From Longimicrobiales bacterium (GTDB lineage Bacteria; Gemmatimonadota; Gemmatimonadetes; Longimicrobiales; Gaopeijiaceae), in contig CBDFIQ010000001.1 in assembly GCA_965248195.1 (NCBI GenBank), positions 1,216,001 to 1,280,000 of the forward strand: a stretch of DNA of 64,000 nt. The letters are read 5' to 3'. Below are positions 3,809-63,659 of this stretch, piece by piece. Each line of letters starts with the position of its first letter. Within the stretch, counting starts at the first letter, position 1. Made by a program: the position numbers and the translations under genes. The notes beneath the pieces are model-generated. The model searched no databases. It had not been told where the DNA came from and saw only the letters and a program-made list of their open reading frames with translations.

Positions 3809-5749
3809 TCATTCGATGATTGCCAGGCGCCGGAGGTCCCGCTCCGCGAGTAGTCGGAGCCACTCGTAGACGTCGATCTCGCTGTTCGCGGCGATGAGAA
3901 GATGAGGCCTGGCCTGATCCGGTCCGCCGAATCCGAGCCAGCGCTCCGTTGCCTCGGTGGCCTTTTCCTCGAGCCCTGGACGAGAGGCCAAGAAATCGTA
4001 TTCGAACGCTTCGAACCCGGGGAGTTTGACAATCGATCGATAGGCCACCTGCCGGGTCGCCGAATACGAATCCGTGAGGAGCTGCGCCAGATACGCGGCC
4101 ATCCAAGTACCGTCCGACGCGTCCCGAGCCGCGTCCCAGCCCAGGTGCCAGGCGAGGATCGTGCGCTGGGCCGCATCACCCTTCAGCGTCCAGAGGATTG
4201 AGGCGGCGATGGATCGCTCGTCCTCGTCCAGCTCCACGAGGGGCTGGCCGTACCACTCCTTCAGGTACCGACTCGACCACTCCAGAGTCTGGTCGAGGTG
4301 ACAGAGGTTGCACGCGTTGGGACGCCCGCTCTCCACCGAGACCTGAACGCTAGGATTGTCGATCCGGTGGCTCCGCATGGCTGAAAAGAGGCCGTACGTG
4401 GTGTGTGGCATGTGACAGTTCATGCACTCGCTGCCCGAAGACTCGGGAAGGTGTCGGGTGTGCTCCGAGATCTCGTCGGCGAAGTCCGTGTGGCAGTTCA
4501 GGCACGACCGGTTTCCGGCGACCTCGGGATCGAGCTGGGTGTCGGAGGCCTCGTACTCGTGCATTGAATGGCACGAAAGGCACGTCAGCTCGCTCGCTCC
4601 GAGGTGGGCGTCTTCCAGGAGGCCGTTGTACTCCCGACCCGCGACCCGAATCGTTCCGTCGGCCCAGAAATTGCCTTCTAGGGCGAGGGGATCGCTCCCC
4701 AGCATCTCCGCCAGTAGCGGATCTTCGGGGTCCTCCGTGTAGCGGAACACGGACCTGTACTCGTGCAGTTCGTCTCCGGCTCGGAACGGCACCCCATCCC
4801 TCCCGTACGCTCGCTGATCCGTCCACTCTCCGAAACTGTGGCATTGAGCGCACGTCTCCACGGAGCGGTGGGGCTCGAGCTTCTCGGGGTTGACGATGGT
4901 CGGATCGCGGGCGTCGGGATCCCGCAACCGGCGAAAGTACCGGAGATAGCGCCTTACCGGCGACTGATAGAAACGGACGTGCTCCTCGGCCGGACCGTGG
5001 CAGGCCTCGCACGCGATGCCCAGCTCCACCGTCCGGGTGTCGAAGCGGCCGAGGTCCGTCAGAACCCGGGGCTCGGTCCCTACCGAGTGGCACTGGGAGC
5101 AGGTACCGTTCCAGGGTGTAGCTCCCTGGACGGAGGAGCTCGGTGGCCTGAGAAACGAATCCTGGTTGGGGATCCATCTCGCCTCGGGAATCAGCCAGAC
5201 CCATGGGACCTGGACGAGTGCGCCACTGTCGGGCCCGAGAGGGCCCTCGGCCTCCTCCGGTCTGCGTATCCAGTAGTTCTGTATGTGGTGAGAGCCCGTG
5301 GTCATCACCACCCGGGCCTCGAAGCGCGGTGGGCTCTCGGGCCAATCCTCGTGCAAGCGCTGCATGAACTCGGCTGGTTGGTCGAACCAGAGGGGGTCCG
5401 GCATCTCGACCCAGAACTCGTCGCCCCGACGCTCGAGGCGCCACCGGTAGCCGCGGTCCTCGAGGACGACGTCGTCGAACATGCCCAGCACCGTGGAAGG
5501 CGTAACCGCCTGCGTCATGGTCCGATGGTAGGAACGGTGCCAGGCGTCGTACTGAGCCGGATGGCACGACTGGCACGTGACCGAGGTCGTGAACCCTTCC
5601 CCCATCGTCTGCTCCGGAAGGTCCTCCCTCAGGTCTTCGTCCACGTCCGGGCTCCAGAGAAGCCCCCCGCCGACCGCGAGCAGCGCGCAGACGACGAGGA
5701 CGATGCGGTAGGAGCGCTTCAAGGAGCCGGACGACGAAATGTGGGCCAT
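3809..5749 (-). CDS. Membrane-anchored or exported octaheme c-type cytochrome (c554/c552-like multiheme family)
   Basis: Eight CxxCH motifs: CQSCH, CSQCH, CEACH, CAQCH, CLSCH, CLNCH, CMNCH, CNLCH. N-terminal hydrophobic segment. Confidence 0.9.
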   Translation of the reverse strand: MAHISSSGSLKRSYRIVLVVCALLAVGGGLLWSPDVDEDLREDLPEQTMGEGFTTSVTCQSCHPAQYDAWHRSYHRTMTQAVTPSTVLGMFDDVVLEDRGYRWRLERRGDEFWVEMPDPLWFDQPAEFMQRLHEDWPESPPRFEARVVMTTGSHHIQNYWIRRPEEAEGPLGPDSGALVQVPWVWLIPEARWIPNQDSFLRPPSSSVQGATPWNGTCSQCHSVGTEPRVLTDLGRFDTRTVELGIACEACHGPAEEHVRFYQSPVRRYLRYFRRLRDPDARDPTIVNPEKLEPHRSVETCAQCHSFGEWTDQRAYGRDGVPFRAGDELHEYRSVFRYTEDPEDPLLAEMLGSDPLALEGNFWADGTIRVAGREYNGLLEDAHLGASELTCLSCHSMHEYEASDTQLDPEVAGNRSCLNCHTDFADEISEHTRHLPESSGSECMNCHMPHTTYGLFSAMRSHRIDNPSVQVSVESGRPNACNLCHLDQTLEWSSRYLKEWYGQPLVELDEDERSIAASILWTLKGDAAQRTILAWHLGWDAARDASDGTWMAAYLAQLLTDSYSATRQVAYRSIVKLPGFEAFEYDFLASRPGLEEKATEATERWLGFGGPDQARPHLLIAANSEIDVYEWLRLLAERDLRRLAIIE

Positions 5750-6737: not shown

Positions 6738-7706
6738 CTAGGGTGTGACGGTGACGTTCACGTAGGCGTTCGTCCAGCAACACTGGTTGGCAAAGCTCCC
6801 GTTGAGCACCTGCACGAGCAGCACATAGTCGCCAGGCTGGCTGAACGTCACCCGCGTCGTATGCTCGATGGGAACCATACCCACTTCGATCCGACTGCTT
6901 TCGGGGGCGAAACTCACGTCACCCCGTGGTCCACTAAACTTTATCCAGCTCAAGCTTTGTCGGGAAAGACCACGTTCCTCATCCTGGCTGCGTTGTAGGC
7001 CGCCTATCGTCATGCTCGCCAGGGCACTCGAAATCGTAATGGGGACCGGAGCTCCGACCCGAGCAGTGACGGGTCCCAACGTGATCCCACCTTTTCCTCT
7101 CCCTTCCGGTCCGGATGGCTCGATGAACCGGACCACCGGTGCCGCACGATCTCCCCCGAAACCGCGATTCCCTTCGAATTCCCCCATCGCCACTCCTACG
7201 GAGTTTTCGAGATTGTCGATCATGTACGATCGGACCGTGATGTGGCCTGGCACGCGATAGGTCTGACCATCGATTCGTAGGTTCCACCAAACGCGCTCAC
7301 TCCCTATGTCCGCTGGGACGTTTACGACGAAGACGCAGGTTTTGCCCTCAAGCTGACGTGTCGGGACGAGATCGCGCGGTCCCTGGGCTGTGAAGTGGGT
7401 GGGCTGAGCCCCGTTAAAGCGGGCGGGCTCGATGAAGTTGTCCGGCCCGACCGGGATGTCCAGCACCTCTTGCCGGTTCAGGCTGAAGTAACCGAAGCAG
7501 AGGTCGTAGGTGCCGTCCTCATTGGGATACCATCCCTCGAATATCGGAAGGACGGGCTGACCGGAATCGCGCACGGTTCGTATCTTCAGGTCCATTTGCA
7601 TCAGGGGATGCTCTGGCACGAGCTGCGCATCCAACGCTGGCACGTTGGCCAGCACGAGCCCGACAATCAGAAGTCCCGTCGCGGCCGACAGGAATCGAGA
7701 TATCAT
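6738..7706 (-). CDS. Secreted 'CCWTN' protein (monooxygenase partner), copy 1, with a probable Ig/PKD-like C-terminal domain
   Basis: Signal peptide ending ALDA-Q. Motifs PIFEGWYPNxDGTY, GPDNFIEP, QPTxF, FSQPGDY and CCWTNAY are shared with the genes at 40377 and 61177. Confidence 0.85.
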   Translation of the reverse strand: MISRFLSAATGLLIVGLVLANVPALDAQLVPEHPLMQMDLKIRTVRDSGQPVLPIFEGWYPNEDGTYDLCFGYFSLNRQEVLDIPVGPDNFIEPARFNGAQPTHFTAQGPRDLVPTRQLEGKTCVFVVNVPADIGSERVWWNLRIDGQTYRVPGHITVRSYMIDNLENSVGVAMGEFEGNRGFGGDRAAPVVRFIEPSGPEGRGKGGITLGPVTARVGAPVPITISSALASMTIGGLQRSQDEERGLSRQSLSWIKFSGPRGDVSFAPESSRIEVGMVPIEHTTRVTFSQPGDYVLLVQVLNGSFANQCCWTNAYVNVTVTP

Positions 7707-7910
7707 CGTCACAGCTTCCTTCTGAACGGAGAAACCTTCTGACAAACCGGCTAGTCTCGTAATCTACGATCGTGCGAAAGCCCGAGAAAGGACCCGACCC
7801 CGGCGAATAAAACAAAGGGGTGCGTCCAAATCCTCTGGGACACACCCCTCACCTTGCTCAAGACAGCGGACAGCAGCGGCCAAGCTCCCAGTTGATCTGG
7901 AGAGCCGGTG

Positions 7911-9317
7911 CTACCTCGATGCTATCGGCCTCCCCCCCTCCCTGTCAGCAACCAGCCGTGCGAAATCTTCGTCGCTGTAAAACGTCATCCCTAGCCGCAA
8001 TCTCCACATCTCATCGACCGTGCGGGAGCGGCCCAACACCCACTGGTCGGGATCAGGATTCTGGGCATTGTTCGTCGTGTTATCAAAGACCGTTGTGATC
8101 ATGATCGTCGTGCCCTCTGGCCACAGAGGCGCCCAATCGTCCTCGTAAATGAACTGCGTATGCCAACGCTGGTCCCAGTCGAGCTTGTTGATCAATTCAT
8201 ACCGGCCGTCGGGGTAGAGCACCTCCAAAATGTTGTAACCGCCGAGCAGGTGCATGTGTCCCCGGAGCGCGTGAACCTTGGCGTTCCCTTCGAGACGGAC
8301 AGCGGTCTTGTAAATCGCCTGGCTGTTCGGCGGAATGATGAGCGGATTATCCTCCATTCCCGCCATCGACGTTTGGTCGAAAACGATGTCGCCCTCGGTC
8401 GGATACGGGATCTCCCCCTCCGGATACAGCCACACCCCGACCTGCAACGAGACATCTTCTAGGTCTTCCGTAAGCCTGGCCGGGTAGAAATGCGGGTTGA
8501 ACAGGACCTGATCTCCCTCCTTCAGGAGTCTTCCGGTACCCTCGGGGTAGATCGCGCCCCTCACACCGACCGCCGCCTCTGCCAGCTGATCCCGCTGAGT
8601 GGCCCTAATCTCCGGAGGCGGCTGATGGGTTCCCGGTCCCTGGTACACGTCTTCCGGCATCCGATTGATCACTCTAGCCGAGCCGTGGTGGAAGACCCCA
8701 TAAAATTCCGGCTTCGTGGCCTTGAGCTCCACGGCCCTGACCCACCGCTCACCCGTGATCCCTAGCTCTGGCGTCATTTCCACGGGATACAAGTTGGGCC
8801 ACTGGTCCATCCCGTTGGCCCTGACGGTGTATCCAGGGGAAGTGATGATCACATCCGGCTCACGACCCAACTCATCCTCGAATGCCCACGTCCCGCCCCA
8901 CCCGGGGAGAGCCGGGTTCGGCAGAAGATCGGCCGGATCACCCAGAGGAGCGCCCGCATCCACCCACTGCACGATCGTTTCGATCTCATCGTCTGTGAGG
9001 GACGGGTCGTTCTTGAAGTGCTGGATCCCCACCCCGACATCCAACGGCCAAGGCGGCATGAATCGGTTCGACACCTGATACTTGATCAGGGGCGCGAACG
9101 ACCGCACGTCTTCATAGGTCAAGAGGGTCATCGGAGCAACGCTGCCCTCGCGATGGCACACTTGGCAGTTCTGCTGAAGGATCGGTGCCACGTCCTTCGC
9201 GTACGTGACAGCGTCAGCGGATTGAGGTGCAACCGGCGACGGCATCGCGATCACCCCAGTCCCCCCCAAAAGGAACCAACCAAGCAATGCTTGGAACCGC
9301 TTCGCCTCTCTCATCAT
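7911..9317 (-). CDS. Heme c-fused copper type II (PHM/DBH-like) monooxygenase, copy 1 (Arg type)
   Basis: Signal peptide, CQVCH and MPPW (cytochrome c). CuH ligands VFHH and HFYP. CuM ligands RGHMH and DEM. TAAGGAG RBS before the ATG at 9317. Confidence 0.9.
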   Translation of the reverse strand: MMREAKRFQALLGWFLLGGTGVIAMPSPVAPQSADAVTYAKDVAPILQQNCQVCHREGSVAPMTLLTYEDVRSFAPLIKYQVSNRFMPPWPLDVGVGIQHFKNDPSLTDDEIETIVQWVDAGAPLGDPADLLPNPALPGWGGTWAFEDELGREPDVIITSPGYTVRANGMDQWPNLYPVEMTPELGITGERWVRAVELKATKPEFYGVFHHGSARVINRMPEDVYQGPGTHQPPPEIRATQRDQLAEAAVGVRGAIYPEGTGRLLKEGDQVLFNPHFYPARLTEDLEDVSLQVGVWLYPEGEIPYPTEGDIVFDQTSMAGMEDNPLIIPPNSQAIYKTAVRLEGNAKVHALRGHMHLLGGYNILEVLYPDGRYELINKLDWDQRWHTQFIYEDDWAPLWPEGTTIMITTVFDNTTNNAQNPDPDQWVLGRSRTVDEMWRLRLGMTFYSDEDFARLVADREGGRPIASR

Positions 9318-9502
9318 CGGGTGCTCCTTATCGGGTGCTTCTTGCCGTTGAGTCGCGAAGCGACTCTTCCCCAATACTGCCGCGCATCCCATCTCGCTCA
9401 TCTGCCGTCAGCCACGTTGGAAACAATGGCATCAGATACATATTTTACGGCGATCTGAGCCGAGGACGCAAGGCACTGTCGGGTCGGGCGCACGCTGATC
9501 CC

Positions 9503-10585
9503 TCAGTTCTTCATCCCATTGATCGACACAAAGGCGGGTTGGATCAAGCGGCGTCGATCGGCATTTGCCTTTGGTACGAATTTTTGCACCCTGTAGTTGG
9601 CGTAATCCGCTACATAGAGGTTGCCGTCCTGGTCCACGTCGAAGTGGTGAGGATTGTTGAATGCGCCCGGAAAGTTCCCCGCCGCGCCCCAGGAAGTAAG
9701 GAATAGGCCGCTCAAGTTGAACTGTACCAACCGGTTGAGCGTTGGGTCACTCATCCAAACAGTTTGATCCTGAGCGACCACTATGTGAGACGGCTGGGCC
9801 ATCCCGTCCCACATGTCGAGGAACTTCCCATTCTCATCGAAAATCTGAATGCGCCCATTGCGGCGATCGGCAACATACACGCGGCGATCCGAGTCGACCT
9901 TTACCGAGTGGACAAGATTGAACTGGCCTGGTCCGGTTCCCCTGCTCCCCCAGTGCATCAGATACTCGCCATCCTCGTTGAACTTCACAACGCGCGTGTT
10001 CACGTAGCCGTCGCTAACGAAAAACCTACCATCCGGTAGGAAGGCCATGTCGGTTGGTCGCGCGAAATGGTCCTGGTCGTCGCCCACCACTCCTTTCTCC
10101 CCCAACGTCATCACCAGTTCCGATCCATCGTTGGTGAACTTGAAGATCTGGCTGGCCCAGTCGTCCACGATCCAGACATGCCGCTCGGGATCGTAAGGGT
10201 TTATGAGAACCTTGTGCGGTCTCACGAAGAGGTGATCCCACTGCGTCCAGGACTCGATAAGCTCACCGTCACCATTCAAGACGAGCACGAAATGGGCGGG
10301 AATGTGGTTAGAGTTGGACTGCGGTCCTGGACCCCGGGGAGGGCGAGGGTCCGGCAAGTCACCTCCCTGCAGCAGGAAGATCCTGTCCGGAGTATCGGGG
10401 TAAACCGCTGTAATCAGGCCAAAGGTCAACCCTTCTTGGTGCCAGGGCAGTGGCTTGAGCCAATTCTCCACCACCTCGTAGGGTCCAGTGATATCCTGAT
10501 CCCCCTTGATCTGTGCGTTCAATGGAGCGCAGATCACCATCCCGGCTGCGCCAGATATTCCCGCGACCCAGCGGCTCGCAATCAT
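9503..10585 (-). CDS. Secreted PAL-like (peptidyl-alpha-hydroxyglycine lyase family) NHL beta-propeller
   Basis: RPHKV, SDGYVNTR, LVHSV, ADRRNGR, NPHHF provide three Zn His plus the catalytic Tyr and Arg of PAL. Signal peptide ending LNA-Q. Confidence 0.9.
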   Translation of the reverse strand: MIASRWVAGISGAAGMVICAPLNAQIKGDQDITGPYEVVENWLKPLPWHQEGLTFGLITAVYPDTPDRIFLLQGGDLPDPRPPRGPGPQSNSNHIPAHFVLVLNGDGELIESWTQWDHLFVRPHKVLINPYDPERHVWIVDDWASQIFKFTNDGSELVMTLGEKGVVGDDQDHFARPTDMAFLPDGRFFVSDGYVNTRVVKFNEDGEYLMHWGSRGTGPGQFNLVHSVKVDSDRRVYVADRRNGRIQIFDENGKFLDMWDGMAQPSHIVVAQDQTVWMSDPTLNRLVQFNLSGLFLTSWGAAGNFPGAFNNPHHFDVDQDGNLYVADYANYRVQKFVPKANADRRRLIQPAFVSINGMKN

Positions 10586-10637
10586 CTTGGTCTCCTAAGC
10601 TTGGCGTTCCAGATTAGGACGGATAGCGTCGCTGCGG

Positions 10638-12044
10638 CTACCGCTGGGGCGCGCGCAGACGGGAAACAGTCCGGGACCCGTCGCCGGTCAGGTCGTCACG
10701 CACGACCACTCCGCCCTTCATCACAAACCGTACGCGCTCCATCTCGCTGATATCCACCAGCGGGTCACCCGCAACCGCGACGATGTCGGCGAACTTGCCG
10801 GCCTCGACGCTACCGATGTCCTCTGCCCAGTTGTAATTCAAATCGTTGGCGGCAACCATCAAGGCCGTGCTCACCGACTGCGCCGGGGTCATCCCCAGTC
10901 CTACGAATACGGAAAAAATGTTCGCCTGCCCGCCGATCCTTCTCGGCCTGGTGTCGGAGAACGGAGAGCCCTGCGAACCACTCCCGAACGGGATCGGTAT
11001 ACCGGCGGCGAGCAGTCTGACGAACAGCTCCTCGGTCTTGACCCAGCGCGGACCGCGTCCGTCGGGAAACGCACCAGCGTACGCATCGTTAAAGCTAATT
11101 TGCACGGACGTGCCGTTCTCGACGACCTCCTGCAGTAGCGTGTCGTCGAGGTCCATCATATGCATGGGCACGTCGAATCCAGCACGCACGCAGCTATAGG
11201 CGGCCTCTTCGTTTCCATAGGTGTGACACGTGGTTCTCAACCCCAACCGCCGAGCCTCATCGGCAATGGCCTCGAACTCCTCGAAGGTCAGCGCCGGAAG
11301 CCCGAGCATGGTCCCGTCCGCTTGGTAGAACCTGCCCTGCGCCGGGTCCAGAAAGTCCCACGTGCTGTAGACTTTCACCCAATCGGCGCCGTACAACTTG
11401 AGCGTGCGGACGGCGCGCCGAGCCTCCCATGGACCCGTGACGCCCAGCCGGTCGCCGGGAACCTGAAGATCCTGGTAGCCGATTGGCAGCTGCCGTACAG
11501 CCCCGCCGCCCCGCGGATTCAGGACGGGTCCGGCAACTTGCATTCGTGGCCCGAGCATTTGGCCACTGTTGATCGCGTTCTTCATCTCGATGGTGGCCCA
11601 GGGCAGATTCTCGCGCGAACCCTGGTCGACCACGGTCGTCCAGCCTCCGTTCAAAGCCATCTGGGCGGCTTGCACCCCCACGATCCACTGCTGCCCAGGC
11701 GTCCCGTTCCCCATTATGTGAAGGTGCGTGTCGATCAATCCCGGGAGCACGGTCTCCTCACTGAGATCGATCACGGTGGCCCCGGACGGGATCCGCACGT
11801 TCGGACCCACGTCTACAATCCGATCGCCCCTGATGAGGATGATTTGATCCGTCAAGTGCTGGGACGACGTGCCATCAAACAACCGACCTGCATGAATTGC
11901 GACGACCTGGTCGGCCGGCGCGAAGAACGGATTATCTCCTCGCGCTTGCCCGGCCCCTCCAAACTGGGCTGACAGAGCCCCGGCCGTACTCCAACTCGCG
12001 GCCGTCAGTGCGACGGCCACCCGTAGCAGACTTGTCCACCACAT
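10638..12044 (-). CDS. Secreted amidohydrolase-superfamily protein (Xaa-Pro dipeptidase-like)
   Basis: VLPGLIDTHLH, GADWVK, TCH, PMH, GKFADIVAVAGDPL, FVMKGG. Signal peptide. AGGAGG RBS. The usual GTD Asp reads GSG. Confidence 0.88.
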   Translation of the reverse strand: MWWTSLLRVAVALTAASWSTAGALSAQFGGAGQARGDNPFFAPADQVVAIHAGRLFDGTSSQHLTDQIILIRGDRIVDVGPNVRIPSGATVIDLSEETVLPGLIDTHLHIMGNGTPGQQWIVGVQAAQMALNGGWTTVVDQGSRENLPWATIEMKNAINSGQMLGPRMQVAGPVLNPRGGGAVRQLPIGYQDLQVPGDRLGVTGPWEARRAVRTLKLYGADWVKVYSTWDFLDPAQGRFYQADGTMLGLPALTFEEFEAIADEARRLGLRTTCHTYGNEEAAYSCVRAGFDVPMHMMDLDDTLLQEVVENGTSVQISFNDAYAGAFPDGRGPRWVKTEELFVRLLAAGIPIPFGSGSQGSPFSDTRPRRIGGQANIFSVFVGLGMTPAQSVSTALMVAANDLNYNWAEDIGSVEAGKFADIVAVAGDPLVDISEMERVRFVMKGGVVVRDDLTGDGSRTVSRLRAPQR

Positions 12045-12093
12045 GGAACCCCTCCTGTCACGCGTGGGTGAAAGCAACGCACTTAGATTCCCA

Positions 12094-19276: not shown

Positions 19277-19411
19277 GAGCCGGGTGCGCTTGGTAATAAG
19301 CGAATCAGGTCGGTAACATAACGCGTTATTGCTCACGAACTTTAGTCACACTCCTGAGGCGAGCCGCCTCGGGAAGTGGTGTTTTTTTTCGGTGTTCTTC
19401 CACCCCCGAGC

Positions 19412-19465
19412 GCGGCGGCCGGACCTCCGTGATCGGGCGGTGGCGGCCGAGTCGGTCGGCCAAGC
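19412..19465 (+). promoter_or_regulatory. Structured 5' leader element of susC1, shared with susC2
   Basis: CCGT-GATCGG-GCGG hairpin followed by GGCCGA-GTCGG-TCGGCC hairpin, about 30 nt upstream of the start codon. Confidence 0.45.
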
Positions 19466-19496
19466 AGTTCTCTTCTCCGACATGGGAGGATGTAAA

Positions 19497-22400: not shown

Positions 22401-22658
22401 GGTTTCGTCAAGCTACGGGAGGTGTCACTGTCCTATGCGTTCTCCGATGACATCGCCGGGAGGCTCGGTGCCGATCGGGGTTCTCTGACATTGGGAGTGC
22501 GCAACGTGGGGACGATCTGGCTCGCTCAGGAGATGGTGGGGGGTGAGCGGATTACAGATCCCGAAATGAGCCGGCCGAATTACGACTTCCAGGGTGAAAG
22601 CGGAGGCGACTGGCCTCCTTTGGCTCAGTGGACCATGCGGCTGAATTTGACGTTCTGA
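19497..22658 (+). CDS. susC: SusC/RagA-family TonB-dependent outer-membrane transporter 1
   Basis: N-terminal carboxypeptidase-regulatory-like domain, LDEIVVTG, IESIEVIKGPAAATLYGTEAANGVIQIITK, C-terminal Phe. GGAGGA RBS before the ATG at 19497. Confidence 0.95.
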   Translation: MSRLIRSRMTRVLGAAAAILIAAPGLVAQQGGTVTGRISDSQSGIPIGAVQVFIPSLDLGGLTQQNGRYLLQNVPAGTHELNVARIGYRTVAQQVTVGVGQVFEQNFALVEEALALDEIVVTGTAGGSQVRAIGNVVARLALPDLLVTAPVSTTEDVLQGRIPGLQMIGTPNSAGDGGQILIRGAASVGLSGDPIVFIDGVRMNGERAEVARYSTQSRLNDIDPRDIESIEVIKGPAAATLYGTEAANGVIQIITKKGQAGEAVFDFTIETGQMWMPDKYITRGWIPNTDPSLGPVCPSVPCESVDQLLNTNLVEISRERGFPELLSEGLIQKYNASVRGGTELMRYSASLSRNDQQGVVDWNFDKRTSVRANFQVNASEKFRFSLNGAYGEGNRGPPQSFWGGNFAWGGVLNTVFDDHRDRGYQTPPEAYSLKNSWCDGSFGDQGEFANGVIDGATFTGDLGGGDQWCHREINFTKRSTWSLQMNLEATDWLSHRLTIGIDQIVERYEELDVRQGDNARFWGTDGREGQKDVETIDLPTTTMDFSGTATFRFNDDQLGTATSYGLQYYHSERHRFRATGEFFSVSSLSTVSAAADRSGSESFVENTTVGLYIQEQLDWDNRLFLTLAVRGDDNSAFGTNFDAAIYPKVSGSWVVNEEDFWNIDFVDQLRLRGAWGQAGQQPDAFASSRLYDPETGPGGAPTLSPARFGNSDLGPEVGEELELGFDASLWDGAVSIEFTYFDRKTKDAIVGRTIPPSLWPGFAGDFAGGLQLVNIGRIDAWGSETAINWSALNRRNLRLDFALAHTWLGNKIVDMGETTNRIQEGRGRAHQEGFSIAAISDQRVVSAEFENAPRGAVTNILCDPGVDGAISPGPLSGITGIDCAVAPKLIWASSQPKQFVNLTSTVTLFENWRASANIDSQLQHWMHSDYLGARHTSYPTAQRIYLQDNAIDQAYRTITRNGLAYHKGGFVKLREVSLSYAFSDDIAGRLGADRGSLTLGVRNVGTIWLAQEMVGGERITDPEMSRPNYDFQGESGGDWPPLAQWTMRLNLTF

Positions 22659-22704
22659 GTCATGCCGACTCGATCGGCGACGACAAAACTACTTGGAGAT
22701 CGAA

Positions 22705-30314: not shown

Positions 30315-30384
30315 GGTGCCGCGGACCTGAAAGCGGCACCGGGACTACCGTGATCGGACGGAGGCGGCTCAGTTGGAGCCGAGC
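30315..30384 (+). promoter_or_regulatory. Structured 5' leader element of susC2
   Basis: GGTGCCGC/GCGGCACC hairpin, then CCGT-GATCGG-ACGG and CGGCTC-AGTTG-GAGCCG hairpins that are homologous to the susC1 leader. Confidence 0.45.
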
Positions 30385-30414
30385 GCCTGTCTTCTTCAAG
30401 ATGGAGGATGTGAA

Positions 30415-33426: not shown

Positions 33427-33510
33427 TAAGCGGGCAGTGTGCGGTAATGACCGTGAAAATGCTGGAGGGAATCCGAAGGGCACCTGAAACGGCTACAGAC
33501 GAGGAAACTG

Positions 33511-34836
33511 ATGATAAACTTGAATAATACCTTGGATAAGAGAAGAAGCCGGGGCTGTCCCGCGGGTAGTCGGTGGCGTCGCGCCGGGACCTTGGGGGCA
33601 TGCGCGCTCGGGGTCTTCATGGTGGCGGCCTGTGACAGCCTGCTGGAAGTGGAGCTTCCTGGACAGTTAAAGTCGTCAGACCTGGACAATCCCCGGCTGG
33701 CAGACGTGCTGGTCAGGAGTGTCCAGTCCGACTTCGACTGTGCGCTGTCGACCTATGTCTGGGCCGGCGGTCTATGGGGCCACGACCTGTATCAGAGCGA
33801 CAATTTCAGCCGGGGCCGCTTGACCCAGCTTCGGTCCAACGAGGTCTTGACCTTCGAACAGGATGAGTGCAACGAATTCACCTTTCCGCAAATCTATCTT
33901 CCGTTCCAGATCGTGCGCTTTCAGGGAGAGGAAGCAGTGAGGCTGATCGAGGGCTTCCCCGACGGCGAAGTTGAAGACAAGGACTTCCTACTCGGCAAGG
34001 CGCACGCCTATACGGGCTATGCCTACGAGATCCTGGGCGAAACCATGTGCGAGATGGCGTTCGACGGTGGTCCGGTCGCAACGCGTCAATCCGCGATGGA
34101 GACCGCGAAGCTCCGGTTCACGTCGGCGATCGACCACGCGAGTCTGGTCACCTCCGGCCCGAACGTCGCCGAGGCTCTCGAGATCGTCAACATGGCGTTG
34201 GTCGGTCGGGCGAGGGCGAGCCTGAACCTAGGGGATGTTGCCGGAGTATTGGCGGACGCGGGCGCGGTGGACGCGGACTTCGTCCGATTCGCGGACATGG
34301 ACGATAGCGATAGTCGGCGTTACAACCAGGTGCACAACAGAAACGAGCGGGCTGGGGGAAACTCTACGGTGCACCCGAGCTACGGGAACCTGATGGTGGG
34401 CGGTGTGCCGGACCCCAGGGTGGACGTCGTGTTCCAGCCCAACGTAATCCCATTCGACGGGGTTTCGGAAGTCTGGTATCAATTCAAGTATCCGGATAGG
34501 AGTGCCGACATTCCATTTTCCTCCTGGCGCGAGGCCCAGCTCATGATCGCGGAGGTAGATCCGGTGCAGTCCGTGGCGATCATCAACAATCTCCGTTCGG
34601 CCCCTTGGGGTTTGCCTGCGTACACCGCCGGGACTGCGGCCGAGGTTTTCGCGCAGGTGTGGGAGGAGCGGCGGCGAGAGCTCTTCCTGCAAGGAACCAA
34701 GATCGGAGACATGCTGCGGCTCGACATTCCCGGAGTCTCGACGGATGACTTCGAGACTGGTGTAAACCAGCGAGGCAACCCGTACGGACCGCACACCTGC
34801 TATCCCTTGCCGGATCAGGAGACTCTCGCTTTGTGA
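33511..34836 (+). CDS. susD: SusD/RagB-like lipoprotein 2
   Basis: Lipobox [28 protein letters not shown]. Confidence 0.88.
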
Positions 34837-37064
34837 GTCCCAAAATGAAGGCTGATTGGAGGGCCGGGAGGGGCTGGAGCGCACTGCCCCTGGTGGGTGT
34901 CGCTGTCGTGGCGGGCTGGTTGACCTCGTGCTCGACGGCGGAAGTCCACGAGCCGCAACAGACTTCCTACACGGACGCCCAGGCCCGTGCGGGTGCGGCG
35001 GTGTACTTCACGACATGCGCGAGCTGTCACCTCACGAACTTTCAGGGATTCGGTGAAGCTCCGGCGTTGGCGGGCCCTGATTTCCTGAATACGTGGGGTC
35101 CCCGGCCGGTGGCCGAGCTCCTGGAGTTGGTCGGGGCGTCCATGCCTCCTACGGCTCCCCAGTCCCTTTCGGACGAGGAATACACGTCGGTGGTGGCTTA
35201 CCTGCTGAGCGTGAACGGAGTGGAGGCGTCCGGAACCCAGCTCACCTCATCGTCCTCCGGGCCGGTCTTTGCTGGGATGGAAGCCGCCGAAGAGGTCGGC
35301 CCCAGTAGGCCGCCGTCCCCAGGCACGCCCGGCAATGTGCCCTCGCCCAACGCTTTCGACCGGCCTCCGCCACCCTCCGGCGAGGTCACCGAGATCCCTA
35401 CAGGCCGCGTCGTGACCTATCGTCCCGTGGAGGAGTTCGCCCCGGTGTTGCCAGGCGATCTGACTTCCCCCCCCGACGCGGATTGGCTGCACTGGCGCCG
35501 AACCCTGGATGGCCAGGGCTACAGTCCCCTTTCCCAGATCAACGGGAGCAATGTCGACGACCTGCAGCTCGCATGGGCGTGGGGCATGGAGCCTGGAACG
35601 AGCCAGACTACACCCTTAGTCCGGGACGGAGTCCTCTACCTTGCCAGCCAAGGCAATGTGATCCAAGCCTTGGACGCGGCGGAAGGCACGCTGCTTTGGG
35701 AGTACCGTCGGCGATTCCCGGAGGGGAGAGGGGGTGGAGCCGACTCCCGGAGCGTGCGAAGTCTGGCGATCTTCGAAGACCTGATTATCCTCGCCACGAG
35801 GGACGCCGCCCTCGTTGCGTTGGACGCCCGTACCGGTAAGCCTCGGTGGGAGACCCAGGTGGCCGACTGGGAAGAGGGATTCAACTACACCTCCGGATCC
35901 ATCGTCGCCGACGGGAAGATCCTCAACGGAATGAGAGGGTGCAGGAGCTTCGGAAGTAGCTGTTTCATCACGGCCCACGATGCGAAAACGGGTGAAGAAC
36001 TCTGGCGCACGCATACGATCGCGCGCCCCGGCGAGCCGGGTGGGGACACGTGGGGCGATCTTCCCATGGAGCTCCGGGCGGGCGTGGACGTTTGGATCCC
36101 CGGGACTTACGACCCGGAATTGGGGTTGGTCTACTACGGCACCGCCCAATCCAAGCCATGGATGGCAGTAAGTAGGGGGCTCACGACGGCCGACTCCACC
36201 CTGTACGCGAACTCGACACTGGCCCTCGACATCGATACGGGCGAGATCGTCTGGTACTTCACACACGTGCCCGGAGAGTCTCTGGATCTGGACGAGGCCT
36301 ATGAGCGAGTGCTTGTCGACGTAGACGACCGCCCGGTGGTCCTCAGCATCGGAAAGAACGGAATCCTCTGGAAGCTGGACCGGAGGGACGGCGCCTTCCT
36401 AGATCTGAAAGAGACCGTCTACCAGGACATCTTCGAGGAGATCGACCGGCAAGAGGGGTGGGTGCGCTACAGGGAAGACATCCGGAACATGCAGTTCGAC
36501 GAGTGGCTCTCCGTCTGTCCTGGCACAGCTGGTGGGCATAACTGGCACTCGACCGCCTACCATCCCGGGGCGCAGTTGCTCGTGATCCCCCTGAGCCAGA
36601 GCTGTATGGACATGATTCCGCGGGAAGTGGCGCTCGAGGAGGGCCGAGGCGGCTCAGGGGGCACACGCATGTGGCGGGAGAGCCCGGTCACGGACCAGCT
36701 CGGGAAGCTCGCGGCTTACGACGTATCTACCATGGAGGAGGTCTGGAGCGTCGAGCAGCGTGCGCCTTTCCTCACCAGCGTGCTGACCACCGGAGGAGGG
36801 CTCGCCTTTGCGGGCGACTACGACCGCCGTTTCCGGGCGTACGACGTCGAGACGGGCCAGGTGCTCTGGGAAACTCGCCTCGCCAGATCCGCGGAAGGGT
36901 TTCCGATCAGCTACGAGGTCGACGGCGTGCAGTACGTGGCCGTTCCCGCGGGGCAAGGAGGCGGAAGCCCTTGGCGGATCCCGACTTTCCTCGGCGCCGA
37001 GATGATCCAGCCCGAGGGAGACGGGCACAACGCGCTCTATGTTTTCCGGCTCCCGACCCGGTGA
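34833..37064 (+). CDS. Lipoprotein with an N-terminal cytochrome c fused to a PQQ alcohol-dehydrogenase-type domain
   Basis: Lipobox LTSC, CASCH..MPP, Pro-rich linker, [31 protein letters not shown]. Confidence 0.9.
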
Positions 37065-41276: not shown

Positions 41277-41379
41277 GGGGTGTAAATCGGTCTCCTCGTG
41301 ACCCCTTGCCTACTCCTGCTCACTTTCGTATCTCGACAAAGCGTGGACGCACGTCGCTAACGCTTTCAGGGAGATTGAG

Positions 41380-43486: not shown

Positions 43487-43600
43487 TTGTTTGAGGAGTA
43501 GATCGGACCCGAGCAAAGGAGGGTTGGCATGATGAACAAATTGTTTGAAAAGCAGATGCAGATCGCGACCCAAAGAAGGAGGAGCGGCATGATGAACAAA
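43487..43600 (+). repeat. Tandem duplication of the RBS-plus-start region of susC3
   Basis: TTGTTTGA..GATCG..ACCC..AAGGAGG..GGCATGATGAACAAA occurs twice, giving in-frame ATGs at 43529 and 43589. Confidence 0.8.
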
Positions 43601-46609: not shown

Positions 46610-46621
46610 GTCAAAAAACGT

Positions 46622-46654
46622 GGGCGCCGTCATCCGAGCGGGATGGCGGCGCCC
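46622..46654. other. Intercistronic GC-rich hairpin between susC3 and susD3
   Basis: GGGCGCCGTCATCC-GAGCG-GGATGGCGGCGCCC, with no U tract on the + strand. Confidence 0.6.
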
Positions 46655-46674
46655 CAGCTACCGCAAATGGAGGA

Positions 46675-59266: not shown

Positions 59267-59394
59267 AAATCTGTACCCGGTGACGAAGCGAAAAGTGCCC
59301 CGCTGGCTCGTCCGGACTGCGTCTCTGGGGCCTCCTGATCCGACCGGATCGGCGACCCAGACCGTCAGCTCGCTGAAGGCCGAGTTAGAGGCAT

Positions 59395-59458: not shown

Positions 59459-59501
59459 CACCGGCGTAAATACCAGTTAAGAAACCCAGTAAAGCTAGTC
59501 C

Positions 59502-60845
59502 TTAGCCACCGCCCTGCTGCGCGACCGTCTGGACCTCTCTTTCAGCCTTGAGCGTCTCGTAACCCTCATCGTCGAGGTGAGTTACGGCTATCCAGGCATG
59601 CGACATCTCGTCGGCCGTGCGGCTGCCCCGCCCGACCCAAACCTCCGGATCGGGGTTGTACGGATTGTTTTCCGTATTGTCATACCATGCGGTGAGAATC
59701 ATGACCGCACCGGTGGGCACCAACGGCGCCACATCCTCTTCGTACAGGTGGCTCAGGTGCCAATGCGCATTCCAATTGGAGATCATACTCACCATCTCCC
59801 GCTCGCCCGTCTCCGGGTAGAAGATCTCCAAGGACTTAGCGACCAGCCTCAGGTGCCCGTGTGGCTGGAAGCTGTCGATACGGACCGGGTGGTCCCACGT
59901 GTGGAACCCCTGGGTCATCGCAGTCCCGTGGGGAGCAATATCGAGGTCGCCCTCTAAGCGGTAATTGCGCAAACTCTGCTCATACTCGGGCTCATAACCC
60001 TCGGGATAAAGCCAGAAGGCGACCGACATCACGTCGTCCACGACCTCTTCGCCCATGGGGTAGAGGTGGATGCTCCAGCGCACATAGGAGTCGACAGGAA
60101 GCAGCCGCGCGGCGTCACTCGGGACAATCTCCCCGAGTTTTCCAAGCGCGTATTCGGTGAAACGACCACGCTGGCTCTTCAGCTCACCGTCTTCCATGAC
60201 GCTCATGGTGGTGTTGGCGTGGTGCACGACCTTATAACCCTCCAGGGACGGCTTGACCTCGATGGCCCTGATATACCGAGGCGTAGTGTTCCCGATGGGA
60301 ACGAGGGGCTCCCACCACAGGTCTTGGCCATCGGCCGGAACCGTAATGGGCTTCGACTCGACCACGATGTCCGGCTCTCCGTAGTCGTACTCGGCCGCCA
60401 GCCGCCACTCGCCGAGGTCAGGGAATCTCCGGGGGGGGGGCATGTCCGCCGGGTCGCCCTCGACGGCGCCCTGGTCGACCCACTGGGCGATCGTCTCGAT
60501 GTCTTCCGAAGACAGACGCTTGTCACTCTTCAGGGCCTGAACGCCCACATCGGTATCGTAGTGATACGGCGGCATTTGCTGCGTGGTCACCTTGAGCTTG
60601 ATCAGCGGTGCGTACAGCTTCGCCTGCTCGTAGGTAATCAGAGACATGGGCCCGATCGAGCCATCCCGATGGCACAGCTGACAGTTCTGCTGAAGAATCG
60701 GGGCTACGTCCCTCGTGAACGTGACGTGAGCCATCTCTTGGGAGAGGGCCTGTCCGTGAAAGGATGCGAGGGCGACGCTGACCACCGCGGGCACGCTAGC
60801 CCAGCCAACTCTCCGCCTCCATGAATCGGATCTCTTCTCTCTCAT
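59502..60845 (-). CDS. Heme c-fused PHM/DBH-like copper monooxygenase, copy 3 (Gln type)
   Basis: CQLCH and MPPY. VVHH, IHLYP, FQPHGH, DEM. Signal peptide. Confidence 0.9.
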   Translation of the reverse strand: MREKRSDSWRRRVGWASVPAVVSVALASFHGQALSQEMAHVTFTRDVAPILQQNCQLCHRDGSIGPMSLITYEQAKLYAPLIKLKVTTQQMPPYHYDTDVGVQALKSDKRLSSEDIETIAQWVDQGAVEGDPADMPPPRRFPDLGEWRLAAEYDYGEPDIVVESKPITVPADGQDLWWEPLVPIGNTTPRYIRAIEVKPSLEGYKVVHHANTTMSVMEDGELKSQRGRFTEYALGKLGEIVPSDAARLLPVDSYVRWSIHLYPMGEEVVDDVMSVAFWLYPEGYEPEYEQSLRNYRLEGDLDIAPHGTAMTQGFHTWDHPVRIDSFQPHGHLRLVAKSLEIFYPETGEREMVSMISNWNAHWHLSHLYEEDVAPLVPTGAVMILTAWYDNTENNPYNPDPEVWVGRGSRTADEMSHAWIAVTHLDDEGYETLKAEREVQTVAQQGGG

Positions 60846-61176
60846 CTTCCTCTCCTTTTATGCGGCAGGATCGTCACCGCAATGCAATTGCCCCCCCCAA
60901 AACACCACTCCAATATGATTCTCAGCGACGGAGCTTGCTCACGTCACTGGACTCGACAGCACTAAAACGAGGTAAATCCCGGTATCTCACCACACCATCA
61001 CACTACCTTCTGGCATTGTCAAGTGTTCCTAACCAAACAAACCTGAGGGCCCCGTTCGGGCCCCCGTAAGCGTACTTCGCCAACACCTCAGCCTCCTCTC
61101 CGGCTAAATATTGTGCCGTCAGGATCCGCCGCTGCCGGGCCGAAAACGACAGGGCCGCGTAGCGAGCGGTAGGCCG

Positions 61177-62133
61177 CTAAGGGGATACCGTTACGCGGAT
61201 GTACCCGTTCGTCCAGCAACATTGGTCGCCGGGGGAGCCTTCGAGGGGGTTAAAGCTATCGACGCGGACGCGCAGGATGTATGTGCCGGGTTCGCCGAAC
61301 GTCGCCGTCGTTGTGGCTTCACCATCTTCGTCGGGCTCCGGCTCCCCGCGTTCACCATCTTCGTCGGGCTCCGGCTCCTCGCCAAACTCTGCCGGACTAG
61401 GTCCCTGATGCGTGTACCATTTCACACCAGGAGTAATACGCTCTCGATCACTCCCTACCCCCCGGGCCTCCGGGTCAAACCGATCAGCGACCCAGACCGT
61501 CAGCGTCAGCGGTGTGCCGACGGACGCGGCCATGGGAAGGGGATTCCGAACGCTTCCAATCGGGCTCTCTCCCTCTAACGCCACTGGATCGGTAGCGGGA
61601 TTGCCGGATGTAGACATCGGGCCCCAGAGTTCGAGCCCATTCCGGCTCAACTTGAGCATCGGGGGCAGGGAGCCCATCGCCATCGCACCGTGACTGAGGG
61701 CATAGGCGCCTATCCCGATCCTTCCCGGGACTGAATGTGTCACGCCATGAGCGGTAATCGTCCAGACCACCCTGCCGCCGCTTTCCGCAAAATCCCCCGG
61801 CAAGGTGATGGTGAAGACACCATTATCCCGACGCGGCGAGAAGAGAGTAGGTTGTGTCCCATTGAACTCGGCTGGTTCGATAGAGTTGTCCGGCCCGACG
61901 GGGAGGCTCACTACCTCTTCCCGATTGCGGTTGAAGTATCCGAATGAGACCGTATAGGTGCCGTTCGCATTCGGGTACCATCCCTCAAAAAAAGGGGTTA
62001 CAGCGAGACCGTGGGTAGCCAAGTTTCGCTGCTGCGCTGACAGCGGCCTTCTATCCTGTGCGTCCAGGGGTGCCCAACTCAGAACGGCAAGCGCCAGTGC
62101 GAGGCATCCGACGCATACACGGTGCTTCATCAT
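61177..62133 (-). CDS. Secreted 'CCWTN' protein, copy 3
   Basis: PFFEGWYPNANGTY, GPDNSIEP, FGEPGTY, CCWTNGY. TAAGGAG RBS before the ATG at 62133. Confidence 0.88.
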   Translation of the reverse strand: MMKHRVCVGCLALALAVLSWAPLDAQDRRPLSAQQRNLATHGLAVTPFFEGWYPNANGTYTVSFGYFNRNREEVVSLPVGPDNSIEPAEFNGTQPTLFSPRRDNGVFTITLPGDFAESGGRVVWTITAHGVTHSVPGRIGIGAYALSHGAMAMGSLPPMLKLSRNGLELWGPMSTSGNPATDPVALEGESPIGSVRNPLPMAASVGTPLTLTVWVADRFDPEARGVGSDRERITPGVKWYTHQGPSPAEFGEEPEPDEDGERGEPEPDEDGEATTTATFGEPGTYILRVRVDSFNPLEGSPGDQCCWTNGYIRVTVSP

Positions 62134-62213
62134 CGACTCCTTATTCATCAATGTGGCTTTCACTCAACTCTACGGCGACACGCCCGCTCGCTGAAGGCCG
62201 AGTCCGGGGCGTA

Positions 62214-62275
62214 GAAACGAAATAAATGGGGACCAGAGGAGCCTCTCGATAAACATGAGAAGCTCCTCTGGTCCC
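62214..62275 (-). terminator. Hairpin or terminator between monooxygenase copy 4 and the CCWTN gene
   Basis: GGGACCAGAGGAGC/GCTCCTCTGGTCCC 14-bp stem followed by a T-rich tract on the minus strand. Confidence 0.55.
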
Positions 62276-62315
62276 TACCGGCGTAAAACGCTAGTACAAC
62301 AACACCTACCTACTC

Positions 62316-63659
62316 CTAGCCGCCGCCCTGCTGCGCGACCGTCTGGACCTCTCTTTCAGCCTTGAGCGTCTCGTAACCCTCATCGTCGAGGTGAGTTACG
62401 GCTATCCAGGCATGCGACATCTCGTCGGCCGTGCGGCTGCCCCGCCCGACCCAAACCTCCGGATCGGGGTTGTACGGATTGTTTTCCGTATTGTCATACC
62501 ATGCGGTGAGGATCATGACCGCACCCGCGGGCACCAACGGCGCCACATCCTCTTCGTACAGGTGGCTCAGGTGCCAATGTGCACTCCAATTGGAGATCAT
62601 ACTCACCATCTCCCGCTCGCCCGTCTCCGGGTAGAAGATCTCCAAGGACTTAGCGACCAGCCTCAGGTGCCCGTGTGGCTGGAAGCTGTCGATACGGACC
62701 GGGTGGTCCCACGTGTGGAACCCCTGGGTCATCGCAGTCCCGTGGGGGGCAATATCGAGGTCGCCCTGTAAGGCGTAACTGCGCAAACTCTGCTCATGCT
62801 CGGGCTCATAACCCTCGGGATAAAGCCAGAAGCCGACCGACATCACGTCGTCCACGACCTCTTCGCCCATGGGGTAGAGGTGGATGCTCCAGCGCACATA
62901 GGAGTCGACAGGAAGCAGCCGTGCGGCGTCACTCGGGACAATCTCCCCGAGTTTTCCAAGCGCGTATTCGGTGAAACGACCACGCTGGCTCTTCAACTCA
63001 CCGTCTTCCATGACGCTCATGGTGGTGTTGGCGTGGTGCACGACCTTACGGCCCTCCACGGAAGGCTTGACCTCGATGGCCCTGATATACCGAGGCGTAG
63101 TGTTCCCGATGGGAACGAGGGGCTCCCACCACAGGTCTTGGCCGTCGGCCGGAACCGTAATGGGCTTCGACTCGACCACGATGTCCGGCTCGCCGTAGTC
63201 GTACTCGGTCTTCAGCCGCCAATCGCCGAGGTCAGCGAACCTCCGGGGCGGGGGCAGGTCCGCCAGGTCGCCCTCGACGGCGCCCTGGTCGACCCACTGG
63301 GCGATCGTCTCGATATCTTCCGGAGACAGACGCATGTCACCCTTCAGGGCCTGAATGCCTACATCGGTATCGTAATGATACGGCGGCATTTGCTGCGTGG
63401 TCACCTTGAGCTTGATCAGCGGTGCGTACAGCTTCGCCTGCTCGTAGGTAATCAGAGACATGGGCCCGATCGAGCCATCCCGATGGCACAGCTGACAGTT
63501 CTGCTGAAGAATCGGGGCTACGTCCCTCGTGAACGTGACGTGAGCCATCTCTTGGGAGAGGGCCTGTCCGTGAAAGGATGCGAGGGCGACGCTGACCACC
63601 GCGGGCACGCTAGCCCAGCCAACTCTCCGCCTCCATGAATCGGATCTCTTCTCTCTCAT
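62316..63659 (-). CDS. Heme c-fused PHM/DBH-like copper monooxygenase, copy 4 (Gln type)
   Basis: Same motifs as copy 3. About 19 substitutions in 447 aa by manual comparison. Confidence 0.9.
   Translation of the reverse strand: MREKRSDSWRRRVGWASVPAVVSVALASFHGQALSQEMAHVTFTRDVAPILQQNCQLCHRDGSIGPMSLITYEQAKLYAPLIKLKVTTQQMPPYHYDTDVGIQALKGDMRLSPEDIETIAQWVDQGAVEGDLADLPPPRRFADLGDWRLKTEYDYGEPDIVVESKPITVPADGQDLWWEPLVPIGNTTPRYIRAIEVKPSVEGRKVVHHANTTMSVMEDGELKSQRGRFTEYALGKLGEIVPSDAARLLPVDSYVRWSIHLYPMGEEVVDDVMSVGFWLYPEGYEPEHEQSLRSYALQGDLDIAPHGTAMTQGFHTWDHPVRIDSFQPHGHLRLVAKSLEIFYPETGEREMVSMISNWSAHWHLSHLYEEDVAPLVPAGAVMILTAWYDNTENNPYNPDPEVWVGRGSRTADEMSHAWIAVTHLDDEGYETLKAEREVQTVAQQGGG

Follow-up and report, generated by a model that had tools for sequence, protein, structure and literature searches.

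A haem-fused PHM/DBH-fold protein and its conserved CCWTN partner in a Longimicrobiales genome: a candidate family of heterodimeric haem-copper monooxygenases

Non-coupled two-copper monooxygenases, namely PHM, DBH and tyramine beta-monooxygenase, are textbook animal enzymes that depend on ascorbate. PHM-like and PAL-like sequences are discussed for eukaryotes in sections of one published article (PMC6529398). Full-text literature searches returned no study of a bacterial haem-fused PHM-like enzyme. Here, we analyzed a stretch of 64,000 nucleotides from a Longimicrobiales bacterium of the Gemmatimonadota (assembly GCA_965248195.1, contig CBDFIQ010000001.1, positions 1,216,001 to 1,280,000 of the forward strand), hereafter called the window, in which an original prediction had described three co-oriented secreted genes at 6738..10585, coding for a PAL-like NHL propeller (NHL1), a haem c-fused copper monooxygenase (MO1) and a partner carrying a CCWTN motif (CCW1), and had interpreted them as a self-contained bacterial PAM-like system. 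Our results favor, on balance, a different view: MO1 and CCW1, and likewise a second pair, MO2 and CCW2, probably constitute an exported heterodimeric haem-copper monooxygenase, whereas the NHL gene is an optional accessory and not part of the core machine.

Four co-oriented genes occupy the minus strand at 6738..12077, in the order amidohydrolase, NHL1, MO1 and CCW1. The three predicted secreted-type genes and their motifs were confirmed on that strand codon by codon, and NHL1, MO1 and CCW1 are likely to be exported, each having a hydrophobic N-terminal stretch that, as judged by eye, resembles a signal peptide. MO1 probably starts at Met29 (9317), since homologues span just 94% of the 496-residue form that begins at an alternative upstream ATG at 9401 (open reading frame (ORF) 9401..7911). 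The relevant features of MO1 and CCW1 are the following:

9317..7911, minus strand: MO1, 468 residues counted from Met29, haem c domain plus PHM/DBH-fold core
Within MO1, minus strand: haem c domain at about residues 36-150 and putative two-copper monooxygenase core at about residues 151-452
9153..9167, minus strand: MO1 CxxCH haem motif (C51, C54, H55), codon-checked, invariant in 33/33 homologues
9057-9059, minus strand: MO1 Met87, probable distal haem ligand, at least 90% conserved among the 33 homologues
8490..8690, minus strand: MO1 predicted CuH ligands H210 and H211 (8685-8690) and H276 (8490-8492), codon-checked, invariant in 33/33
8007..8264, minus strand: MO1 predicted CuM ligands H354 and H356 (8250-8258) and M437 (8007-8009), invariant in 33/33
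8262-8264, minus strand: MO1 R352, two residues before HxH, invariant in the 33-member alignment
7745..6738, minus strand: CCW1, 335 residues, predicted exported two-domain beta-sandwich partner
6768-6782, minus strand: vicinal Cys322-Cys323 of CCW1 within CCWTN, codon-checked

In an alignment of 33 homologues that are 42-81% identical to MO1, residues C51, C54, H55, H210, H211, H276, H354, H356 and M437 were invariant, the codon-checked motif strings of MO1 being R352-G-H354-M-H356 and E436-M437. With regard to the haem domain, CxxCH is invariant and Met87 highly conserved, with a cytochrome c model score below threshold. The AlphaFold2 (AF2) model of MO1 (predicted local distance difference test (pLDDT) 83.9, predicted template modelling score (pTM) 0.80) was matched best by Foldseek to human DBH (4zel, E 1.2e-10) and rat PHM (1yip, E 1.0e-9), at a probability of 1.00. 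Re-alignment with VIA gave Z 18.1 and a root-mean-square deviation (rmsd) of 3.6 over 274 residues for DBH 4zel, and Z 16.2-16.8 over 244-250 residues for PHM (best Z 16.8, rmsd 2.9, 244 residues), the next family being PNGase F at Z 7.6.

Profile comparisons pointed in the same direction. The PF03712 model scored 23.9 bits in a six-frame search and 21.3 bits in hmmscan (cut-off 23) against a divergent MO paralogue of the same genome, with which the MO profile aligned in hhalign at E 7.6e-41. Similarly, a Gemmatimonadota protein (L099) scored 34.3 bits on PF03712 and 19 bits on PF01082, and hhalign aligned it with the MO profile at a probability of 98.3 and E 2.2e-14, the HH, H, HxH and DEM columns coinciding. 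Judged from the model and these alignments, MO is supported as a PHM/DBH-fold protein with the full CuH and CuM ligand pattern and a fused c-type haem motif. The original assignment of MO1 as a monooxygenase with PHM-type ligands and a fused haem motif is thereby upheld (fold Z 16-18, ligands 33/33), and its motifs proved non-random, both in MO and in the cysteine pair of the partner (32/32).

MO relatives form a bacterial branch of thousands of members that no family database labels as an oxygenase. More than 4,109 matches were obtained among 8,000 scored candidates, and, clustered at 50% identity, the family comprised 18,097 representatives with E <= 0.001, of which 2,690 had E <= 1e-30; in the source annotation these relatives appear, at best, as 'mono/diheme cytochrome c family protein'. 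The genome that harbors the window (4.86 Mb) contains 27 MO-like genes, together with 46 NHL propellers and 44 genes for pyrroloquinoline quinone (PQQ)-dependent dehydrogenases, three families of exported enzymes that are all strongly expanded. An MO match at E <= 1e-40 was present in 23 of 151 sampled Gemmatimonadota genomes and in 11 of 16 from the window's family. Since these relatives mostly show one to three matches (among 10 candidates scored per genome), 27 copies represent a marked expansion, and the location of about 27 copies in islands where TonB receptors, NHL propellers and PQQ dehydrogenases abound suggests that a variety of substrates is catabolized oxidatively. All 20 CCW-paired MO paralogues of the genome retain the haem and copper motifs; two positions before HxH, 11 of them have Arg, 3 have Gln and 6 have Glu, a variation that fits diversified substrates. 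The own-genome paralogues fall into two subfamilies, the first with NPDPDQW, DEM(S/A)H and R or Q before HxH, and the second with EPHLHAPG, NMF and an RDxxGAMPP insert in the haem domain.

With regard to the partner, neither CCW1 nor CCW2 belongs to any Pfam or NCBIfam family. The AF2 model of CCW1 (pLDDT 84.2) consists of two beta-sandwich domains, and both Foldseek and all-against-all VIA returned generic Ig-like or PapD-like sandwiches (best Z 9.9), most matches spanning residues 179-335; a search of the ESM Atlas with CCW1 gave the protein's own unnamed clusters and nothing else. We then examined gene neighborhoods in other genomes, using 79 loci with 85 MO genes and 7-kb flanks from Longimicrobiales, other Gemmatimonadota, Vicinamibacterales, Pseudohongiella and other Gammaproteobacteria. 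A CCW gene was located within 300 nucleotides and on the same strand for 77 of the 85 MO genes (upstream for 52, downstream for 25), and six of the eight MO genes without CCW touch a contig end or lie at most 750 nucleotides from it. In the window's own genome, CCW was found within 450 nucleotides of 22 of the 27 MO copies. Furthermore, pairwise identities of MO and CCW across 20 own-genome pairs correlated with r 0.83, a value reached in none of 2000 permutations.

Structure prediction of the MO1-CCW1 complex yielded ipSAE scores, which express the model's own confidence, of 0.85, 0.84 and 0.83 (median 0.84), against 0.00 for the best control, with at least 59% of contacts common to the runs and a partner pLDDT of at least 82. 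Among solved complexes, 116 of 157 attained the mark used for this score, as did 2 of 215 mismatched pairs; both counts are only rough because analysis-specific alignments were supplied. On the MO side, the predicted interface comprises residues 166-174 (DQWP) and 421-434, the NPDPDQW loop of the CuM domain, which ends three residues before Met437; on the CCW side, it comprises residues 53-69 (PIFEGW) plus residues 319 and 321 beside the Cys pair. It covers the best-conserved motifs of both proteins. Natural fusions of MO and CCW were also encountered, in five proteins and three arrangements:

P0131: CCW followed by MO, natural fusion, Cys-Cys kept
P0136 and P0139: MO followed by CCW, natural fusions, Cys-Cys lost
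P0144 and P0121: CCW N-domain, MO, CCW C-domain, natural fusions, Cys-Cys lost

The last arrangement, in which CCW is split around MO, cannot be produced by simple read-through of adjacent genes. As for the motif itself, CC was invariant in the 32 aligned CCW partners and present in all 69 partner tails listed, followed by W, H or F. A cofactor derived from Cys and Trp in CCW was considered and rejected, given that many partners have His or Phe in place of Trp and that only one of the five fusions keeps CC. Gene adjacency, co-divergence, complex prediction and the five fusions bear out the proposal that the CCWTN protein is a truly conserved partner of MO.

On the interpretation that we favor, the MO haem would accept single electrons from periplasmic cytochromes and hand them to CuH and CuM instead of ascorbate. 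The replacement of ascorbate by the fused haem c, already suggested in the original prediction, is plausible because the haem fusion is invariant. With O2 activated at CuM, the enzyme would hydroxylate an imported substrate at a C-H bond. In MO1 and MO2 the substrate probably bears a carboxylate gripped by Arg352, which by motif spacing stands at what we take to be the position of PHM Arg240, and CCW may help to shape or stabilize the substrate site or the CuM pocket. What follows hydroxylation would vary by locus: here the next enzyme may be the PAL-like NHL1, and elsewhere it would mostly be a PQQ dehydrogenase or nothing recognizable. The MO1 haem may receive electrons from a 646-residue cytochrome with eight CxxCH motifs, whose gene (3809-5749, minus strand) lies 1 kb downstream of CCW1 in the same orientation.

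A number of observations weigh against a heterodimeric haem-copper monooxygenase. MO1 and MO2 gave no Cu2_monooxygen match in Pfam, even at E 10, and matched no copper-monooxygenase model in NCBIfam; PDB sequence searches, whether with MO1 or with the 33-homologue profile, did not find PHM, and the two proteins scored only 17.3 and 19 bits on Pfam Cytochrome_CBB3, whose cut-off is 27. The hidden Markov model searches proposed with the original prediction were productive for NHL (1.7e-21) but not for Cu2_monooxygen or Cu2_monoox_C in MO1 and MO2. Two MO genes with full flanks (loci L017 and L069) have no CCW nearby, and co-divergence of MO and CCW could result from duplication as a unit, without binding; the complex score, in turn, reports how confident the model is in itself. 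Cys-Cys is absent from four of the five fusions, namely those that carry the CCW C-domain after MO, so that the CC motif is not essential for catalysis in the wider family. Finally, other paralogues have Q or E at the position of Arg352, which rules out a carboxylate substrate for the family as a whole.

The original prediction had also pointed to a recurrence of the trio at 38981-42441. MO2, CCW2 and NHL2 are indeed present there, although NHL2 is only 29% identical to NHL1 and lacks two of the PAL residues (see below). The features of this second locus are:

38981-40384, plus strand: MO2, second haem c-PHM-like putative monooxygenase, 42% identical to MO1
Within MO2, plus strand: CQICH at residue 50, MPPW at 86, FHH at 205, HMH at 346 and EM at 428, codon-checked
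40377-41276, plus strand: CCW2, overlapping MO2 by 8 nucleotides, 41% identical to CCW1, CCWTN kept
41380-42441, plus strand: NHL2, NHL propeller of a different subtype from NHL1
34833..37064, plus strand: cytochrome c-PQQ dehydrogenase, 1.9 kb upstream of MO2, Pfam PQQ 3.8e-68 and Cytochrome_CBB3 3.5e-10

Elsewhere, the commonest third neighbor of MO-CCW pairs is a PQQ dehydrogenase, which is commoner than NHL. ORF clustering detected PQQ-dependent dehydrogenases in 43 of the 79 loci (cluster representative: Pfam PQQ 1.8e-60 and Cytochrome_CBB3 2.1e-8) and, within 1.5 kb, in 36 of the 79, 21 of the latter with an N-terminal CxxCH; by tblastn, such a gene lay within 1.5 kb of 40 of the 85 MO genes, in 33 cases on the same strand. 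In the own genome, a PQQ dehydrogenase was found within 4 kb of 9 of the 27 MO copies against 2.46 expected, and 1 of 2000 simulations reached 9. These counts, as well as the cytochrome c-PQQ gene upstream of MO2, speak for a self-priming two-step module, in which MO-CCW would hydroxylate the substrate and a PQQ dehydrogenase, often fused to cytochrome c, would oxidize the resulting alcohol and send two electrons back via c-type haems. On the other hand, for 30 of the 85 MO genes the locus lacks a PQQ gene, the nearest one to MO1 is 15.7 kb off, the clustering may merely mirror common catabolic islands and, with 44 PQQ dehydrogenase genes in the genome, some adjacency to MO is expected anyway. 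Such a module is possible, though we lean against it; it is compatible with a heterodimeric monooxygenase, to which it would add an electron source.

The PAM-like system of the original prediction, in turn, involves two further genes of the first locus:

10585..9503, minus strand: NHL1, 360 residues, predicted exported six-bladed NHL propeller, Pfam NHL 1.7e-21
12077..10638, minus strand: amidohydrolase, 479 residues, Pfam Amidohydro_1 6.6e-20; 227 bits on the NCBIfam Xaa-Pro dipeptidase model, under its cut-off of 500

In this scheme, NHL1, MO1 and CCW1 would act as a self-contained bacterial PAM: the alpha-carbon of a Gly-extended or N-acylglycine-like substrate would be hydroxylated, the product cleaved in a PAL-like manner to an amide and glyoxylate, and the amide then attacked by the amidohydrolase. 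In favor of it, the N-terminal half of NHL1 has rat PAL as its best PDB match (3fvz, E 1.1e-17), and the printed alignment sets H124 (PH) on PAL His585 and Y194 (DGY) on Tyr654, in the numbering of the full-length chain 5wm0. NHL1 98-253 aligns with PAL 560-718 in one stretch, whose offsets place H226 (VH) on His690 and R241 (in the D240-R241 motif, DR) on Arg706, and NPHH...KF of NHL1 is in register with MPHD...KF of PAL, so that H313 of the H313-H314 pair (PHH) falls on His786, and a His on Asp787. PAL ranks 8th among the matches of the C-terminal half of NHL1. The whole protein is colinear with 3fvz (E 5.6e-43, chain residues 20-326 against profile positions 51-354), and no other solved NHL protein matches NHL1 over its full length without a break. 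In 12 of 12 related propellers, the Arg and all three His were invariant. Because the PAL residues are aligned, these four are invariant and PAL is the single end-to-end match, NHL1 is credible, on sequence grounds, as a PAL-type metal enzyme. This does not extend to NHL2, which has DGH for DGY and GME for PHH, that is, His in place of the PAL Tyr and Met/Glu in place of the third His; the PAL-like residue set is thus a feature of NHL1 and not of its counterpart.

A PAM is also suggested by the Arg two residues before HxH in MO1 and MO2, as in PHM, and by the location of NHL genes within 4 kb of 7 of the 27 own-genome MO copies where 2.13 would be expected (a count of 7 was reached in 6 of 2000 simulations). 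Likewise, in the nearest genome (G011), the MO1 orthologue (71% identical, locus L001) has an NHL gene and an 89%-identical amidohydrolase within 3 kb; a PQQ dehydrogenase also lies beside this orthologue. RNA-library contigs that are 95-99% alike, drawn from two studies with four runs, overlap sections of all four genes of the first locus (amidohydrolase, NHL1, MO1 and CCW1); transcription, strand and operon structure are not readable from such contigs, and uncovered parts carry no meaning. One of them bridges the NHL1/MO1 junction at 9149-9565, which shows that this adjacency exists in related strains; as a hint in favor of a PAM it is weak, since DNA carry-over is possible and neither a single transcript nor an operon is implied.

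Nevertheless, co-conservation of the trio as a unit in other genomes, on which the original prediction had staked itself, was not found for NHL. An NHL gene occurs within 1.5 kb of merely 8 of the 85 MO genes elsewhere (5 on the same strand) and in the 7-kb flanks of 20; in the own genome, NHL accompanies 2 of the 27 MO copies at up to 1.5 kb, where the random mean is 1.14 and 642 of 2000 simulations reach 2. NHL-MO adjacency at 1.5 kb in this genome is thus at chance level, and enrichment is seen only at 4 kb. A true orthologue of NHL1 (93%) was found solely in G011, at a different locus and divergent from tandem MO-CCW pairs, whereas the short NHL beside the MO1 orthologue is of another subtype (41% identical). 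None of the other 13 best NHL1-like genes of relatives has MO or CCW within 1.5 kb. The amidohydrolase-MO1 neighborhood is kept in one close relative, G011, where the amidohydrolase adjoins MO1 on the opposite strand, and the amidohydrolase link to MO1 is accordingly weak. In addition, NHL2 is devoid of the Tyr and the third His, NHL1 has His in place of PAL Asp787, presumably a calcium site, and the residues after the Met ligand in MO1 (M-W-R-L-R) differ from those of PHM, which we take to be Asn316 and Tyr318.

We therefore regard a self-contained PAM as unlikely. What stands of it are the MO fold and ligands, the PAL residues of NHL1 and the CCW partner; what does not is the co-conservation of NHL, which is an optional accessory, because most other genomes have a PQQ dehydrogenase or nothing recognizable as the next enzyme. 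The more exciting reading needs correction, in that conservation does not extend to a complete bacterial PAM pathway. As a separate observation, NHL2-type propellers with a His/Ala-rich C-terminal extension of about 190 residues (534 residues in total) are located beside MO-CCW at two Vicinamibacteraceae loci (L043:8377-9978 and L068:12587-14188).

It was also considered whether CCW is not a subunit at all, being instead a dedicated copper chaperone or maturation factor of MO, or its protein substrate, modified for instance at or near Cys-Cys. The one-to-one pairing, the invariance of CC in the aligned partners, the position of residues 319 and 321 beside CC within the predicted interface and the beta-sandwich, presumably the general kind of fold of periplasmic copper chaperones, are all consistent with this. 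A chaperone, however, would not need some 20 co-diverging copies in one genome, and CCW has no invariant His/Met copper motif. The existence of stable fusions in three arrangements speaks for a lasting complex; in addition, CC is missing from four of the five fusions, and the residue after it varies (W, H, F). We hold either role to be very unlikely. Least credible of all is that MO inserts no oxygen and serves in electron transfer as a haem-copper protein, or as an oxidase reducing O2 or some other small molecule. In its favor, no family member has a known activity, no paper on the family was found and the fold by itself shows no function. Against it, the ligands are exactly those of the non-coupled two-copper monooxygenases and are invariant, the CuM Met among them, and substrate diversity accounts better than a single redox role for the variable R/Q/E pocket residue and for about 27 diverged copies.

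Returning to the heterodimeric haem-copper monooxygenase, the window holds two more MO copies and a third CCW beyond those described originally:

59502..63659, minus strand: third cluster, with MO4 (62316-63659), CCW3 (61177-62163) and MO3 (59502-60845)

MO3 and MO4 are near-identical copies of 447 residues, with CCW3 as the sole CCW between them, and the cluster contains a 300-nucleotide direct repeat (98% identical, spacing 2814 nucleotides). Both have QPHGH where MO1 has RGHMH. Directly downstream of MO3, a 346-residue ORF (58424-59461, minus strand) with CarboxypepD_reg and Plug but no barrel may be the remnant of a truncated TonB receptor. Overall, the window is an island of exported, catabolic-type genes, with three TonB-dependent receptors, four PQQ dehydrogenases, five NHL propellers, four MO and three CCW genes, as well as an FAD (flavin adenine dinucleotide) oxidoreductase, the eight-haem cytochrome and a small cytochrome c. 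The TonB-dependent receptors (CarboxypepD_reg plus Plug) are located in the segments 19329-24219, 30373-34833 and 43529-48075, each receptor being followed by a co-oriented gene for 440-510 residues without a Pfam family, an arrangement that recalls, by analogy, uptake pairs of the SusC/SusD type.

In a broader and rather doubtful extension, which we put forward tentatively, MO-CCW heterodimers would be a very large and so far unrecognized class of haem-wired copper monooxygenases, and together with neighboring cytochrome c-PQQ dehydrogenases or PAL-like lyases would form reductant-neutral periplasmic modules of oligotrophic marine and soil bacteria (Gemmatimonadota, Vicinamibacterales, Pseudohongiella) for breaking unactivated C-H or C-N bonds of TonB-imported substrates. 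The substrate would be hydroxylated and then dehydrogenated or cleaved, electrons would go back via c-type haems, and the R/Q/E residue and the cognate CCW would set specificity.

With regard to the described enzymes, PHM (1PHM, 1OPM, 5WJA) resembles MO in its two-domain beta-sandwich with HH...H and HxH...Met at similar spacing and in the Asp/Glu-Met motif at the Met ligand, and, as far as MO1 and MO2 are concerned, also in the Arg two residues before HxH. In contrast, MO is 12-18% identical to PHM, lacks a Pfam match, differs in the residues past the Met ligand and has no PAL fusion; whereas PHM relies on ascorbate, MO carries a c-type haem domain at its N-terminus. It also has a beta-sandwich partner and is bacterial and predicted to be exported, with up to 27 copies per genome. 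DBH (4ZEL) is the best structural match and shares with MO the presence of an extra domain N-terminal to the copper core. This domain is DOMON in DBH, whereas in MO it is a CxxCH cytochrome, and DBH is a disulfide-linked eukaryotic glycoprotein that acts on an amine substrate. PAL (3FVZ, 3FW0) and NHL1 have in common the six-bladed NHL propeller and counterparts of His585, Tyr654, His690, Arg706 and His786; unlike PAL, NHL1 is encoded by a separate gene that is not conserved beside MO, and has His for Asp787. The genome's 46 NHL propellers are mostly far from any MO.

Two Gemmatimonadota proteins (L099:1402-3189 and L104:1372-3159) combine a CxxCH domain with a Pfam-positive Cu2_monoox_C core. 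Like MO, they show the haem motif followed by HH, H, HxH and DEM; they differ from it in their N-terminal additions (a YceI domain in L099, an AhpC/TSA redoxin domain in L104) and in their Cys-rich cores, with DEMC as in PHM. These architectures indicate that the haem-copper core occurs with several N-terminal additions. In a wider comparison, fungal lytic polysaccharide monooxygenases receive their electrons from a haem domain that belongs to cellobiose dehydrogenase or to a PQQ pyranose dehydrogenase. The principle is like that proposed for MO, a copper oxygenase primed by a dehydrogenase-fed cytochrome domain, but the fold is unrelated, the copper single, the cytochrome located on the dehydrogenase and the haem of type b instead of c.

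The MO-CCW pairs may accordingly represent a large, uncharacterized family of heterodimeric haem-copper monooxygenases. Relative to PHM and DBH, the MO branch brings its own haem electron entry plus a second subunit. If active, it would offer a tractable bacterial model of PHM/DBH chemistry without ascorbate, new biocatalysts for C-H hydroxylation and a possible pathway by which abundant uncultured bacteria break down organic matter oxidatively in the periplasm.

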